A stretch of DNA of 64,000 bases from a virus. The DNA lies in IMG/VR virus record IMGVR_UViG_3300028827_000102, positions 32,001-96,000 of that record; one strand, given 5' to 3'. A program made the translations under genes and the position numbers. Of the stretch, positions 23,128 through 33,714 are shown one piece after another. Each line of letters opens with the position of its first letter. The first letter of the stretch is position 1. Under the pieces are notes generated by a model. The model saw nothing but the letters and a program-made list of their open reading frames with translations, was not told the origin of the DNA and made no database searches.

Positions 23128-24282
23128 CTATTCTCCCTCTACTTCTACAGAATCATCTGTGCCGTCTAAAGCGTAGTTTTTATATCCTAGTAGCTTAAAA
23201 TGTCGTCTATATACAGCATCCTTTTTTAGTAGAGAAAAACAATAATTTCGGAATTCGTCGCTCTCAGCTACTTTTCTAAATGCATCCCAAGCTAGATATT
23301 TGTCTGTAAAAAACTTTTTAAGCAGTATTTTATTTTTTCCCTGTTTTCTTTCCACCATTCCTATTGCTTCTAGGAAATCTAGACCGTCTTGAGCTTTATC
23401 TATGCCCTTGCCCATTATAATGTCTAATTCAAACTCTTGAAAAGCGGGGAAAGTCTTGTTTTTTATTGTCCTTACCCATACATGTTGGCGATACATACCA
23501 ACTTTATCTTCTTCGGCTTTCTTTCTACCGTGTACTCTAATTGCATAATCAGGATAATACTTCCAAGCCTGCCCTCCTGTAGGTGCTTCCGGATTAGCAC
23601 CAGGCATACGCATATTTATATTCATACGTATCTGATTAGAAGCTATCATTATGGCGCCTTTGTGTGCCAGTAATGATTTAGTTACGCCAAGAAAACGAGA
23701 ATGCATTCTAGCTTCTAATCCAGCTGCACCTTCTCCCGTTTCCACATCTCTACTCTTAGAAAACATGGCAGCGACACTATCCAACAAAATCAAACAACTT
23801 GGTTTATTTATATCATGCAAATTCACATCCGGTAGACGTCTAAGAAATCTATGTAGATGTTTATATACCCCTTCACCTGTTTCTGGTTGAGCATAAAAAT
23901 ACGCAGGAACATTCTTTCCGTTTATTTCTATTGTTTTGTGTATATCTAATCCTTGTGTACGCATATAAACAGGATCGGCTGAATGTTCTGTATCATAATG
24001 AACAATCGGAATATCTAACTTTTGTCCAGATATCGCACAAGCTTGTAAAAATGTACTTTTTCCGGAAGCTTCTGGACCGTATATATGCACTAGCCTGCCA
24101 CACTGAAAACCTCCACCTAACTTCAGATCTGCTATGAGAGATCCAGTAGACAGGGCTTTATCTACACGATGTGCTTCTCCCAACGAAACGCAACGTATTT
24201 CATCTTTTGTATCATTAAATGCATCTACTATAGCTGTTACCGGATCGGTAAATTCTATATCAGACTTTTTCTTTCTCGGCAT
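23128..24282 (-). CDS. recA: RecA/UvsX recombinase
   Basis: STGS, GPEASGKST, ILLDSVA, EARM.S, NQIR, GG.A.KYY, KNK. Confidence 0.92.
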   Translation of the reverse strand: MPRKKKSDIEFTDPVTAIVDAFNDTKDEIRCVSLGEAHRVDKALSTGSLIADLKLGGGFQCGRLVHIYGPEASGKSTFLQACAISGQKLDIPIVHYDTEHSADPVYMRTQGLDIHKTIEINGKNVPAYFYAQPETGEGVYKHLHRFLRRLPDVNLHDINKPSCLILLDSVAAMFSKSRDVETGEGAAGLEARMHSRFLGVTKSLLAHKGAIMIASNQIRMNINMRMPGANPEAPTGGQAWKYYPDYAIRVHGRKKAEEDKVGMYRQHVWVRTIKNKTFPAFQEFELDIIMGKGIDKAQDGLDFLEAIGMVERKQGKNKILLKKFFTDKYLAWDAFRKVAESDEFRNYCFSLLKKDAVYRRHFKLLGYKNYALDGTDDSVEVEGE

Positions 24283-24386
24283 TACACTACCTTATCATTT
24301 TCTAGATCTATGCACATCGGTAGCCAGAAGCAATTGGCGCATACTTCTTCTTCTCTATACCTGCCATAACAAGCAGGTTTACCCCT
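24282..24386 (-). other. In-frame 34-codon Cys4 extension downstream of the SSB UGA (read-through candidate)
   Basis: TGA|RGKPACYGRYREEEVCANCFWLPMCIDLENDKVV|TAA, overlapping the recA ATG as TAATG; no in-frame start codon before the first three Cys. Confidence 0.55.
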
Positions 24387-25469
24387 TCAATCAAAAGTTA
24401 GATCGTCATCGTCATCGAAAGAAAAATCATCAAGGTCGTCAGAAGAATCGGAAGAATCATCGTCATCATCATCGAAAGAAAGGTCATCGTCATCATCATC
24501 GAAAGAAAGGTCATCGTCATCATTCTTATTTTTTGCCTTCTTTTTATTGCCCTTATTGCTTTTATTGCTCTTATTGCCTCTTTTTCTGCTGCTATTTTTC
24601 TTAGTATTTGTCTTCTCTTCGTCTACAGTATCTTCGTCATCAAAAGAAATGTCATCAAGATCATCATCATTGTCAGTATCAAATTCAATATCGTCAGAAG
24701 ACGTGCCAGACACAGATACAGACACAGGAGCCCCAGTAGCTTTAGCTAAAGCAGCGTAACACCCCAACGAGTGTAACTTCTGTTCCAACACATCTGAATC
24801 TATGGTTTCTATTGAATCAAGCAAATCTACTAGTACGCCTTTATGTACCTTCCCCCCTAGCTTACATACATAAGCATCCTTATTTTCAATGTATTTCACG
24901 GGGAGACGTTTTCCTGTGGATACGAATTTGTATTCTACTCCACTCATATATGGATTGCTGCTCTTTTGTGCTAGCCATGTGAGCACTACACCACGCTTGT
25001 CGTCGTCAACAGAAGAACCTATTGCTTCTGCTATTCCCTTAAGTTCCTTCCACTCCAATACGTTCATATTTACCAGGCCCCACTGCTCGTCCGCGTTTTT
25101 CTTTATATTTGTGATGTGGAAAGCATGAGCCAAGTATCTGAAACTCTGAGGCATACGCAACCACTCAAAATCATTTCTCACGTCTATATACTTGTGGAAA
25201 TTGGCGCATATGGGGCAACCATTATCGACACTGGTAGCCTCAGCTATATCCCAATTTGGACATAAAGTATAGAATCCCTTTAGATCGTTTGATCCCTTTG
25301 GAACAAACTTGACGTAGTGTGTAACTATGGTAGCAAATCCACCTACCAGCCTAATCTGTACCGGCTTTCCAATAGACGGTCTAGAAAGCAGAGGAAGCAT
25401 TTCATCCCAACGTGAATCCGACTGCTGCCCAGGAACCTCTCCCATAGAACGGAAACCCTTTTTTCTCAT
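24387..25469 (-). CDS. gp32-like single-stranded DNA-binding protein
   Basis: QIRLVG...H...C...CPIC N-domain; very acidic tail with DDDDLSF repeats (27-bp unit) ending LTFD; next to recA. Confidence 0.7.
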   Translation of the reverse strand: MRKKGFRSMGEVPGQQSDSRWDEMLPLLSRPSIGKPVQIRLVGGFATIVTHYVKFVPKGSNDLKGFYTLCPNWDIAEATSVDNGCPICANFHKYIDVRNDFEWLRMPQSFRYLAHAFHITNIKKNADEQWGLVNMNVLEWKELKGIAEAIGSSVDDDKRGVVLTWLAQKSSNPYMSGVEYKFVSTGKRLPVKYIENKDAYVCKLGGKVHKGVLVDLLDSIETIDSDVLEQKLHSLGCYAALAKATGAPVSVSVSGTSSDDIEFDTDNDDDLDDISFDDEDTVDEEKTNTKKNSSRKRGNKSNKSNKGNKKKAKNKNDDDDLSFDDDDDDLSFDDDDDDSSDSSDDLDDFSFDDDDDLTFD

Positions 25470-25487: not shown

Positions 25488-26849
25488 TTAAATATTGTCG
25501 ATACGATTGGCCATTTCTTTTGCCACTTGTACCTTACACGCTAACTGTCGAAGTGTTTCTGAATATACTTCAGCCATATCTAATCCAGAATTATCTATGC
25601 CATCTAGAAGACCATTACGTAAACATAATACCCTACACTCATCTTTTGTCAAGTGCTTTAACATCTTTAGAATGAAATCCTTCGTTTCATCATTTACAGT
25701 AAAAGTATGCTCTTCATCTGGGACATATACAAGCTTATCTTTATCATATACAGAAACTTCTTTCCATTCTGCATCTTCCTTTTGATCTTGGTCATAACTT
25801 ACCACCTGCGAAGCTTGTACTTCTCTTAATGTATCTTCTATTTTCTGTACACTACACCCTACTTCCTCTGCCAGCATATCATTAGTTGGTTCAAAGATAT
25901 TTAGTTCTGAAGCTAACTTACCAGCAGCTGATTGAATCTTTTGGTACATTCTCCATGTAGATGATGGTATTTTTATTAGTGGACCTCCACTAGATTTTCT
26001 GTATGCTTGTATTCTCTGTACTACCCACTGACGGGCAAAAGTGGGAAAAGACATGCGTTGTCTATAATCATAGTCAGAAACAGCTCTCCATAAGCCAAAA
26101 GAACCAGCTTGTAGCATATCACTGGCATGTAGGTCAGAATAAGCATATTTACGTACTTCTACTACCACTAATTTCATGTATGATTGCACAATGCGATTCT
26201 GTATTGTAGAAATACGTTTCACTATATTATTCACTATGCCGACAACTCCGTATAAATAGTTTGGGTACATTATTCCAGCTCTCTGTTCAATAAGCCTTTT
26301 TTTATCCGTAAGTTTGCTTATTCTCTTCATTATTGACACAATCTCATCGTTGTCAGTAGACAACGAAACCTTTGTCTTTAAGGTTGCCAGTTCTAATTCT
26401 ATTTGCTGGTAGTTAGAAGTAATGGCATCAAATGTACGCAATATTGCTTCATATCTGCTATTACGTAAACGTAGCCTTTCTAAAACAGCCTTAGTTTCTT
26501 TTTCTGCTACATCTCTCGGAGATGCTGCTAGCCTGAATAGACTATAACCGGTACTTAGTATCTGCAAATTTCCTGTACCGATTTGTACATCGTTGATAGT
26601 AGTAAAACCTTTGCACGATTCATCGTATATACTATATTTTTCGTTTTTGACAGCACCTCCAGCAATCCTGTAAAGAATATAACATATATTGTCTTCCACA
26701 AATGTGGTGTATTTTACCAATTCTTGTATGCCGATACTTGTGTATATTTCTATATCTTTAAACAAGGAATCCAATGTATGGTAATCTATATCCGGGGCAG
26801 ATAATATTTGCTTTGCAATGCTATTGAACATTTCAAATTTATCGGACAT
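25488..26849 (-). CDS. Phage sigma70-family RNA polymerase sigma factor
   Basis: Region 2: MKLVV..VRKY...DMLQAGSFGLWRAVSDYDY...FPTFARQWV; region 3 EPT..LAEEVG; region 4.1 LTKDECRVLCLRNGL. Confidence 0.85.
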   Translation of the reverse strand: MSDKFEMFNSIAKQILSAPDIDYHTLDSLFKDIEIYTSIGIQELVKYTTFVEDNICYILYRIAGGAVKNEKYSIYDESCKGFTTINDVQIGTGNLQILSTGYSLFRLAASPRDVAEKETKAVLERLRLRNSRYEAILRTFDAITSNYQQIELELATLKTKVSLSTDNDEIVSIMKRISKLTDKKRLIEQRAGIMYPNYLYGVVGIVNNIVKRISTIQNRIVQSYMKLVVVEVRKYAYSDLHASDMLQAGSFGLWRAVSDYDYRQRMSFPTFARQWVVQRIQAYRKSSGGPLIKIPSSTWRMYQKIQSAAGKLASELNIFEPTNDMLAEEVGCSVQKIEDTLREVQASQVVSYDQDQKEDAEWKEVSVYDKDKLVYVPDEEHTFTVNDETKDFILKMLKHLTKDECRVLCLRNGLLDGIDNSGLDMAEVYSETLRQLACKVQVAKEMANRIDNI

Positions 26850-31544: not shown

Positions 31545-33714
31545 AATATACTTTTACTTCCTTTCTTTTTATTGCTGAGATTGTATCTGATAAGCTTAAT
31601 ACTTTTCTTTTTCCATCTAAAAATACCACAAAATTCTTATTTCCTGCGACTGACAAATTCTTTCTTGTGGTTATTGATAACTGTTCGACCCTTCTACCAT
31701 TATCGGATAATAACACATTTCCAGGAGAAAGTACAAGCACTTTCTTTACATCGGATCTACCGATCCTTTTAGGAAGAACATTTGGTCTCGTTACTTTTAG
31801 ATTAGAGACTTCCGTTTTTATTATTCTTCCATTCTTACATATTATTAATATAGTGTCTTCATCGTTTACACCCACAGCAAACAAAGGATTATCGTCTTTT
31901 TTGAACGCCTTAAATATTTTTCGTCGTTGGTCTGAAGGAAACAAAACATAATTGCGCGTTGACAACACTAAGCAATATTTTTTTGTACTAATACCAACTA
32001 TTGATCCAGGTTGCTTTTCATATCTGTCAGCATATGATGTGTCTAAAACAGACACTATATTAGTGTCGTACACAACAACGGCTCTTTCACTTGCCTTCTC
32101 AAAAGATGTATAAGACCATGCTGCTTTTGTGTTTGTAGGTATTTCTTTAAAAACAGATACTGTTTCTTGTCCTGCTCCCACCCAATACTGTATGTTTTCT
32201 ATGGTAGAAATAGACACAGGTTTAACGCATAGCTTGGTGCCGCGTTTCTTTCCTAAAGGTTTTATCTCAAGTAAGTGTCTCTTGATGACATCATCAATAT
32301 TAGCCAAATCTTCACGCAAAGCATTGATTTTTTGCTTTGTTTTCTTTATTTCACTTACTATTTTATCTATATCTGAACGCAGTAATGTAGAAATATTTGC
32401 ATTTAGTATTATATCGGCCTGTTGTTTTGTTACACCAAGGTTTGTACATAACGACTCAATTGCATCTGTTTTGCCCTCGGCTGTCTGTAATATTTTCACC
32501 ACTTCTTTAGCATGTTTAGCTGCTTTGTATTTAGCTATCTGTGTTGCTAGTAATTTACGTTGCGCCAAGATAGACCGTGTGAGTCTGCCAGACTCAATCT
32601 CACGCCTAAATACAATAAATTCTACAAGAAGGGAACGTAAATTATATTTTTTTGGTTTACCGTTTATATCTAAACAATACCATTTGTACGAAATTTTACT
32701 GTCCAGAAGAGGAAGTATCCTGTCTTTTACCGCTCTACCATCAGAAAATTTTATTGTAAATCTTTGTCCGTTTTCTAACGTGGTTTCGTCAGTAATCGGA
32801 CTATCTATTAATCCAGCCTTGAAGCAGCTTATTGATGTGTCTAACAACTTAGATCTGCGTCCACGCATTTCTGGCGCAAAAGCGGTTATCACCAATAGTT
32901 GCTCATCGTCATTAGTTTCTATATGATACTCAGACGAATAATGTAACGATCCCTCTCCTGTTTCATATAAACGTAACAGATCCCCTTCAGACGACAACAA
33001 TACGCCAGAACCGTAATCTGGTCCTTTTATAAATTTCAACAGATCTTTAGTAGTAGCATCGGGATTATCTATAAGATGACAACAAGCATCTATAACTTCA
33101 TGTAAATTATGTGGAGGTATGTTAGTAGATAAACCTACAGCTATACCGTCTGTCCCCTTTATAAGGGATAAAGGTATTCTGACAGGAAGGATAACGGGTT
33201 CATCTAACGTAGCGTCGTAGTTTTTTGTCTTCTGTACTATATCTATATCAATAAACAACGACTCTGCTAATTTTGATAATCTGCATTCAGTGTATCTGCT
33301 ACTAGCCGCCGGTCTCTTTTGATAAGACGAAAAATCTCCAAAATTGCCGTCTGGTATTATAAGCCGGTCTTTGTCATGAGCCAGTAACACCAAAGCTTGA
33401 TACACTGCTGCATCGCCGTGTGGATGATATTTACCTATCGTTTCTCCTACTATTCTTCCACTTTTTACAGGAGGCCGGGAAGACAGAGCATTTAGATTAT
33501 ACATAGCCCATAAAATACGTCGCACGCTGGGCTTTAATCCATCTCTGGCATCTGGAAGGGCTCTGTTTTCTATAGCATATTTACCATATTCTACAATACA
33601 GTCTTTTACTATTTCTTGAGTAGATTTAAACGTTACATTTCCATCCTTTCCAGCTGTTTTAGTTTTTCGTCCAAGTCTGCCAGTTGGCGTTCTATTTCTT
33701 TTTTTGGTACCCAT
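31528..33714 (-). CDS. gyrA: Type IIA topoisomerase subunit A (GyrA/ParC-like)
   Basis: RALPDARDGLKP, GKYHPHGD, AASSRYTE (catalytic Tyr), GIAVG..TNIPPHNL. Confidence 0.9.
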   Translation of the reverse strand: MGTKKRNRTPTGRLGRKTKTAGKDGNVTFKSTQEIVKDCIVEYGKYAIENRALPDARDGLKPSVRRILWAMYNLNALSSRPPVKSGRIVGETIGKYHPHGDAAVYQALVLLAHDKDRLIIPDGNFGDFSSYQKRPAASSRYTECRLSKLAESLFIDIDIVQKTKNYDATLDEPVILPVRIPLSLIKGTDGIAVGLSTNIPPHNLHEVIDACCHLIDNPDATTKDLLKFIKGPDYGSGVLLSSEGDLLRLYETGEGSLHYSSEYHIETNDDEQLLVITAFAPEMRGRRSKLLDTSISCFKAGLIDSPITDETTLENGQRFTIKFSDGRAVKDRILPLLDSKISYKWYCLDINGKPKKYNLRSLLVEFIVFRREIESGRLTRSILAQRKLLATQIAKYKAAKHAKEVVKILQTAEGKTDAIESLCTNLGVTKQQADIILNANISTLLRSDIDKIVSEIKKTKQKINALREDLANIDDVIKRHLLEIKPLGKKRGTKLCVKPVSISTIENIQYWVGAGQETVSVFKEIPTNTKAAWSYTSFEKASERAVVVYDTNIVSVLDTSYADRYEKQPGSIVGISTKKYCLVLSTRNYVLFPSDQRRKIFKAFKKDDNPLFAVGVNDEDTILIICKNGRIIKTEVSNLKVTRPNVLPKRIGRSDVKKVLVLSPGNVLLSDNGRRVEQLSITTRKNLSVAGNKNFVVFLDGKRKVLSLSDTISAIKRKEVKVYYAIST

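Follow-up and report, generated by a model that had tools for sequence, protein, structure and literature searches.

A conserved, start-less Cys4 module directly behind the stop codon of a gp32-like SSB gene in a large phage is a candidate for stop-codon recoding

The window studied here is a stretch of 64,000 nucleotides (nt) of viral DNA (positions 32,001 to 96,000 of the IMG/VR record IMGVR_UViG_3300028827_000102). On its minus strand, a gene for a gp32-like single-stranded DNA-binding protein (SSB) ends at a UGA codon shortly before a recA/UvsX-like recombinase gene, and the element in question lies between the two. The SSB frame stays open through the 104 nt after the stop (24386–24283), giving 34 codons (24386–24285) that include four cysteines (the Cys4 module), and the closing TAA (24284–24282) has one A in common with the recA ATG (24282–24280), forming TAATG (Table 1). 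The sole in-frame ATG, GTG or TTG of this extension is the Met codon directly preceding the fourth cysteine, and the antisense frames contain stops. The original prediction, read from the letters of the window, was correct in its coordinates, frame, TAATG overlap, cysteine spacing, missing start, 8-nt spacer and 7-bp hairpin with no U tract. We propose that recoding joins this Cys4 finger to a minority of SSB molecules, in the window by UGA read-through, a reading that we hold, on comparison of sequences, to be evenly poised between right and wrong.

Table 1. Features at the SSB–recA junction, in positions of the 64,000-nt window
Feature	Positions	Strand	Description or basis
Sigma factor gene	25488–26849	–	
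gp32-like SSB gene, 360 aa	24387–25469	–	Core ~21–250, disordered acidic tail, DDLSFDDDD repeats, basic patch, tip ..DDLTFD
UGA stop of the SSB gene, A next; proposed read-through site	24387–24389	–	Sequence and contig agreement
34 sense codons and TAA in the SSB frame: short basic lead-in, then Cys4 module	24282–24386	–	Sequence; conserved in relatives
Purine-rich 8-nt spacer, stop to hairpin	24379–24386	–	Sequence
Hairpin 1: 7 bp, 6-nt loop, over K-P-A-C-Y-G-R codons	24359–24378	–	Folding
Hairpin 2: 7 bp, 9-nt loop, codons around Cys2 and Cys3	24326–24348	–	Folding
Four invariant Cys codons, C-x9-C-x2-C-x5-C	24371–69, 24341–39, 24332–30, 24314–12 (span 24312–24371)	–	Sequence, alignment
recA/UvsX-like recombinase gene	23128–24282	–	Pfam RecA 1.8e-35; phrog_97 UvsX-like 9.6e-50

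An open frame of this length is not significant in itself, as at least 34 in-frame codons remain open after the stop in 24 of the 108 open reading frames (ORFs) examined in the record; significance comes solely from conservation in relatives. The TTG that overlaps the SSB stop (TTGA) starts just a 3-codon ORF in another frame, which relatives do not share. An alternative ORF of 19–28 residues in the third frame, beginning with the TTG at 24394 (24308–24394), is not conserved in relatives and was ruled out. The TGA is matched by DNA contigs from four sequencing runs of one sample, the sole sample for which runs were located (Logan contig 24306–24479, zero differences), so that the reads available agree with it, at a depth of only ~3. 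One low-depth contig (run X3, 31 nt from the contig end) has C for A on the plus strand at 24359; this is probably an error, and would alter the last base of the 3' arm of the hairpin and put Asp at the position after CYG-x where Tyr, Phe or His is conserved. The long ORFs of the record end in TAA (59), TAG (29) or TGA (20; n = 108), the code is standard, genes are densely packed and no tRNA gene was detected in the window or the whole 108.6-kb record; TGA is for these reasons an ordinary stop here, as had been predicted.

A metagenome scan identified contigs with the same sigma factor, SSB and recA synteny (designated here by L numbers), each with a homologue of the peptide directly after the SSB stop, and pattern scans of viral contigs added three further records with the peptide (L009/L010, L011 and L014). 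The resulting alignment, A6, holds seven peptide sequences from about six lineages (window, L002, L004, L005, L009, L011 and L014). In all seven, the codon of the first cysteine (Cys1) sits 11–21 nt past the SSB stop, the spacing C-x9-C-x2-C-x5-C is identical and there are zero indels over 26 codons; the Pro at –2, Cys-Tyr-Gly, Cys2, Cys3 and the Trp, Pro and Cys4 of W-x-P-x-C are invariant. The four cysteines and their spacing are kept in six other lineages, as are the stop and the cysteines together; the in-frame fusion to SSB that was to be looked for among homologues was not found. The phages that share the peptide have SSBs just 26–40% identical and GC contents from 38% to ~60%. Between the window and L005, the peptide is 59% identical and the SSBs ~36–39%, with genome GC ~20 points apart. 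The SSB of L014 matches the family profile at 1e-77, and BLASTP of the window SSB against it gave no alignment.

Other searches for relatives were largely empty. Viral contigs and GenBank phages gave no relative of SSB or recA when searched with single proteins, a word-indexed protein search with the window protein returned only the protein itself, and a scan of viral contigs with alignment A2 yielded no relative. The last viral scan gave L032, in which the SSB tail runs off the contig end. Among GTDB genomes, the scan for the peptide produced chance matches only and no copy. Four near-identical prophage-like records (L012, L013, L016 and L017) share a loose C-Y-G...C-x2-C-x-W-x-P-x-C match; it lies out of frame over two ordinary ORFs and was judged to be chance. 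A match of L015 to the loose DNA pattern was rejected as junk.

Substitution patterns point to a coding function. The ratio of nonsynonymous to synonymous differences (pN/pS, mean over the seven sequences) is 0.47 in the peptide frame versus 1.21 and 1.70 in the other two, and pairwise differences at codon positions 1, 2 and 3 average 0.41, 0.34 and 0.59 over 30 ungapped codons. Synonymous differences are near saturation (pS 0.4–1.0, with pN 0.16–0.45), and six different codons encode the conserved Leu residues. Judged from these patterns, the 34 codons form a genuine coding module. In the window, L002, L005, L009, L011 and L014, no ATG, GTG or TTG lies between the preceding in-frame stop and Cys1; the only canonical start is a GTG in L004, 15 codons upstream, and its close relative L009 has two stops there. 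Since the Pro at –2 and basic residues at –3/–4 are conserved, the point where translation begins must be no more than a few codons away from the SSB stop. The prediction of a start-less Cys4 extension was thus borne out: the peptide is conserved and shows purifying selection, and three lineages have it in frame behind UGA. Searches of a 5.8-billion-cluster protein collection and 1.84 billion representatives gave no profile match, either stand-alone (18–84 aa) or longer (85–2000 aa), although the exact-word index makes this a weak test, and with the read-through product as query none of 30 matches aligned past residue 366. The absence of a protein-database homologue is expected because gene callers cannot see such an ORF.

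The SSB itself was placed by its predicted fold. In an AlphaFold2 (AF2) model, core residues ~21–250 have a predicted local distance difference test score (pLDDT) above 90 and the tail is disordered. The top Foldseek matches were the RB69 and T4 gp32 cores (2a1k, E 2.7e-6; 1gpc, 1.9e-5), with probability 1.0 against 2a1k, 1gpc and 8gme, and in the ESM Atlas the nearest clusters belong to PF08804 (TM 0.68). No Pfam or PHROG profile matched at E up to 0.01 and 0.001, respectively, and a PDB profile search with SSB alignment A1 returned only low-complexity noise and no gp32. Going by these models, the gene upstream of the extension encodes an SSB of the gp32 type, whose tail is acidic and whose tip is aromatic, consistent with the SSB and acidic tip first predicted, and its homology to gp32 is remote and visible by fold alone. 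An exhaustive phmmer search gave 30 SSB homologues at 26–42% identity; H51, C70, C85 and C88 are invariant across 16 SSB sequences, and all have the acidic tail. In 13 of 15 inspected homologues, the C-terminus is an acidic-aromatic tip that aligns with ..LTFD of the window, and a Cys-rich extension is found in 0 of the 15. The SSB stop is therefore ancestral, which excludes a sequencing error or a recent nonsense mutation, named at the outset as an outcome that would undo the prediction. The tail of the window SSB also contains near-perfect direct repeats (24398–24523, minus strand) encoding D-D-D-D-D-L-S-F-D-D-D, which are internal copies of the tip motif, with a Lys/Asn/Ser-rich basic patch upstream of them; this acidic-basic-acidic plan is found in homologues as well.

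Comparison of the junctions revealed three classes. In class A (window, L002/L003 and L005–L008), the peptide is in frame 0, directly behind a TGA followed by A. This TGA-A is found in all three frame-0 lineages, though TGA closes so few ORFs of the window phage (20 of 108). Class B (L004, L009 and L011) has the peptide in the –1 frame; its SSBs end in ..W-D-stop (TGA, TGA and TAG), with the junction G_GAY_URR, and in L009 and L011 the –1 frame does not open until one to three codons before the SSB stop. Because L009 is an independent record with the same arrangement, that of L004 is not an assembly error, and pN/pS between the two is 0.29, which indicates purifying selection within the class. 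Class C is L014, also in the –1 frame; its SSB stop is TAA, and 30 nt ahead of that stop it has the canonical heptamer G_GGA_AAA in register. The L014 heptamer leads into the peptide frame, which argues for a fusion to SSB. The +1 frame relative to SSB was not seen in any lineage. With its extension in frame 0, the window is no case of –1 frameshifting, and only L014 has a heptamer. The G_GAY_URR junction, followed by 8 nt and a strong hairpin, occurs at 2630–2645 in L004, at 2986–3000 in L009 and on the reverse strand in L011, 20 nt before the Cys1 codon; it may represent an undescribed type of stop-adjacent shift site. The proposal of UGA read-through fits the three lineages with the peptide in frame 0 behind TGA-A; as the peptide is in the –1 frame in L004, L009, L011 and L014, read-through is one of several routes and not the defining mechanism.

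A structured RNA follows the stop in every lineage. The hairpin starts 8 nt after the stop in the window, L004, L009 and L011; the spacer is longer in L005 (12 nt) and L002 (15 nt), and the L014 hairpin begins 27 nt after the shift site. The six GC-rich sequences each form one hairpin of ~22 bp, which starts at the Pro codon ahead of Cys1 and ends at the Trp codon that follows Cys3, with z values of –4.3, –5.1, –4.7, –7.4, –4.4 and –2.9 against dinucleotide shuffles; the corresponding value for the window is –2.0 (57–60 nt holding both 7-bp hairpins). Each sequence was also compared with 400 synonymous recodings that preserve the peptide and local codon usage. No recoding was as stable in L005 (z –4.21), L004 (–4.37), L009 (–6.31) or L011 (–5.16); the fraction as stable was 0.007 in L002 (z –2.46), 0.018 in the window (z –2.25) and 0.08 in L014 (z –1.51). 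By these tests, the RNA structure over the first half of the peptide ORF is selected beyond coding need, in support of the downstream structure originally pointed out. Pairwise comparison gave 0–3 two-sided compensations per pair, no hairpin in any lineage is followed by a U tract, and Rfam returned nothing near threshold.

A start-less module, apparently translated, that abuts the SSB stop and carries a selected hairpin is what one expects of a recoding cassette, as far as comparison of sequences can tell, and UGA-A read-through is the only route in the window that needs no unknown mechanism. Under this proposal, the 34-codon module would be accessible to ribosomes only via the SSB gene. Most ribosomes would stop at UGA-A and release normal SSB with a free acidic-aromatic tip, and a minority would decode the UGA, presumably by near-cognate tRNA-Trp and probably aided by the hairpin 8 nt downstream. 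These ribosomes would append a short basic linker and a presumably zinc-binding Cys4 knuckle and end at the TAA on the recA start. Sister lineages would reach the same module from the –1 frame, in class B perhaps through a stop-stimulated slip of tRNA-Asp in the P site from GAY to GGA. We infer read-through, its efficiency, the residue inserted and the function of an extended isoform from the conserved arrangement.

Several observations weigh against this proposal. Class B is the main difficulty: no X_XXY_YYZ heptamer was found in L004, L009 or L011, so another route is possible there and hence also in the window, and initiation or re-initiation at the CTG or ATT codons of these junctions would weaken the fusion model in all lineages. 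The module is fused through a sense codon in none of the ~30 SSB homologues. The hairpins of the window are themselves only marginally significant (z about –2), and RNAalifold found 8 consensus pairs, no compensatory change and no common covarying fold, the small number of pairs being due to hairpin registers that differ between lineages. To our knowledge, hairpin-stimulated read-through is established for eukaryotic viruses and not for bacteria. Finally, ~69% of the phage genome lies beyond the record, and a suppressor tRNA may sit there.

The Cys4 peptide could instead be a separate micro-protein, translated by re-initiation or by de novo initiation at a non-canonical codon beside the SSB stop, with the hairpin pausing or positioning ribosomes. 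We consider this rather unlikely. It would fit the frame of the peptide, which is not fixed relative to SSB (three lineages have 0, the others –1), the absence of a plain in-frame fusion from every lineage and the heavy use of stop–start overlaps by the window phage. Near-cognate codons do occur at the junctions (AGG in the window, ATA in L005, CTG and ATT in L004 and L009, CTG in L011), but one is expected by chance at about a third of random junctions, L002 has none at all between the stop and Cys1, and before its conserved K-P the window has AGG, GGT and AAA only. The upstream GTG of L004 would serve as a start, yet it is not conserved and is replaced by the two stops in L009. No pair of Shine-Dalgarno sequence and start is common to the lineages, the +1 frame is never observed, and the L014 heptamer would be left unexplained.

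If the hairpin, as RNA or DNA, were the sole functional element (an mRNA 3' stabiliser, a processing site or an SSB-recA attenuator), the peptide would not be made and its conservation would be a by-product. The selection of strong hairpins beyond coding constraint in all lineages, and their location right after a presumably highly expressed gene, would suit this; conservation of amino acids, however, runs ~10 codons past the hairpin while synonymous change is free, pN/pS is below 1 in the peptide frame only, and seven sequences show zero indels over 26 codons. The AT-rich window, which has no long hairpin, still encodes a peptide 59% identical to that of L005, and the missing U tracts add to the case, making this explanation quite improbable. 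Decoding of the UGA as selenocysteine, with the hairpin as a bacterial selenocysteine insertion sequence (SECIS), is less probable still. In its favour, a hairpin comes after the in-frame UGA and has GU in the loop, with the G ~16 nt after the UGA, presumably at the lower edge of SECIS geometry. Against it, no relative has Cys at the aligned position, the –1 lineages have a Leu codon there or begin their ORF downstream of it, the UGA falls in a non-conserved linker, loop sequences differ between lineages, Rfam gave no match and the record has neither selC nor any other tRNA gene; the SECIS analogy drawn at first does not survive the absence of Cys at the UGA position. We give almost no credence to the idea that the frame is open by chance, or that a longer SSB is cut short by a recent nonsense mutation or, through a sequencing error, only seems to be. 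The equally open frames behind 24 of 108 stops and the shallow read depth would allow it, but the stop falls at the normal acidic-aromatic C-terminus of the family, every relative has kept it alongside the conserved peptide, and an independent contig agrees with the TGA.

UGA read-through joined to a C-terminal module, as we propose for the window, resembles that of phage Qbeta, in which a leaky UGA at the end of the coat gene lets a minority of ribosomes add a functional C-terminal domain to an abundant protein (A1). Both are phage genes with a UGA and an in-frame C-terminal module, although in the window read-through is proposed from sequence alone. Qbeta is an RNA phage and extends a structural protein by ~200 aa, whereas here a large double-stranded DNA (dsDNA) phage would extend a replication/recombination protein by a 34-aa Cys4 module that has –1-frame relatives. 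Signals of the murine leukaemia virus (MuLV) gag-pol type consist of a stop, a spacer of ~8 nt and a downstream structure, and related viruses interchange read-through and –1 frameshifting. In the window, too, an 8-nt spacer separates the stop from a stable structure, which lies within the extension ORF; the window differs in its bacterial translation, in a simple hairpin rather than a pseudoknot, in UGA-A rather than UAG-G, and in that the spacer is 12–15 nt in two of the three in-frame lineages. In dsDNA phages, minor C-terminally extended isoforms arise by recoding near the gene end in the lambda tail chaperones G/GT (–1 frameshift at G_GGA_AAG) and in T7 10A/10B. The L014 heptamer G_GGA_AAA is near-identical to that of lambda, but the window has no frameshift, three –1 relatives have no heptamer and the protein class is another. 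The layout of a UGA followed by a hairpin is shared with bacterial SECIS elements, from which the locus differs in having no Cys-for-Sec homologue, no conserved loop and no constant frame in relatives.

The window SSB shares with T4 and RB69 gp32 the core fold, as modelled, a His-Cys3 metal site and an acidic C-terminal tail of the partner-binding kind; it differs in ~12–17% identity, no Pfam match, a much longer tail and an aromatic tip as in bacterial SSB. We know of no gp32 with a recoded extension. Bacterial SSB has an acidic C-terminal tip (..DDDIPF), and the phage family has a comparable disordered acidic tail, which in 13 of 15 homologues has an aromatic residue either last or no more than two residues from the C-terminus. 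The OB-fold families are unrelated, however, and D-D-L-S-F-D is also internal in the window tail. As for the module itself, four invariant cysteines at fixed spacing in 7 of 7 sequences are what a zinc knuckle would need as ligands, and the knuckle presumably binds zinc. Pfam gave no match to the peptides even at E 10, and an AF2 model of the peptide (pLDDT 70, compact, little secondary structure) had no PDB match at Z ≥ 2. The spacing of the first three cysteines (C-x9-C-x2-C; 24369–24341, minus strand) is the same as that of the T4 gp32 zinc ligands, which we take to be Cys77, Cys87 and Cys90, and the SSB core of the family has C-x14-C-x2-C; the resemblance may be coincidence. As to the prediction of two SSB isoforms, one with a metal-capped tip, the conserved Cys4 module stands, and it is from this module that we infer the isoforms, the binding of metal and the capping of the acidic-aromatic tip.

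The virus record is 108,580 nt long with 38.5% GC and an estimated completeness of 31%, which implies a jumbo phage of roughly 350 kb. The minus-strand operon runs from the sigma factor through SSB and recA to small ORFs and an SbcD-like nuclease. Same-strand neighbours in the record overlap by 4 nt (ATGA type) in nine cases and by 1 nt (TAATG type) in another nine. No stop–start overlap couples SSB to the peptide, and the TAATG of peptide and recA is present in the window but not conserved: in L002, peptide stop and recA start overlap by 20 nt, and the stop precedes the start by 12 nt in L005, 15 nt in L009, 5 nt in L011 and ~75 nt in L004. In L014, it overlaps the start of another small ORF that precedes recA. 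With an arrangement varying from a 20-nt overlap to a 75-nt gap and an intervening small ORF, the suggestion that recA translation is tied to read-through has to be dropped. The more distant, cluster-2 SSB phages (L025–L029) have no Cys4 peptide and a different small ORF in that slot, between SSB and recA (L025, 3767–4140; L026, 3680–3963; L029, 3797–4176), which is also found on the reverse strand of L030 after the Cys4 peptide. This ORF has roughly 60–90 codons, ordinary start codons and a ..P-x-S-W-D..A-L motif in common. In L014, the two occur together, the Cys4 peptide and this ORF being linked by TAATG. The SSB-recA slot seems to house small accessory proteins.

Beyond the classic frameshifts, little has been charted of recoding in large dsDNA phages, and the module described here is a conserved domain unseen by every gene caller. 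A literature search found no stop-codon read-through on a replication or recombination protein, which is not proof of absence, and we know of none. Somewhat more speculatively than for the window itself, a clade of jumbo phages might supply a subpopulation of its SSB with a Cys4 finger, never as a plain fusion, by three routes (UGA read-through, a –1 heptamer and a G_GAY_URR shift), the finger switching the partner-binding tip; we put this forward as a tentative possibility. The change between frames 0 and –1 among close relatives also provides a natural comparative system for the behaviour of bacterial ribosomes at a stop and hairpin. If the finger is fused to SSB, the phage would have two SSB forms, one with a free and one with a capped tip, and with them a simple way to fix the ratio of SSB species with different partners, which could act at the replication fork or on recombination intermediates.

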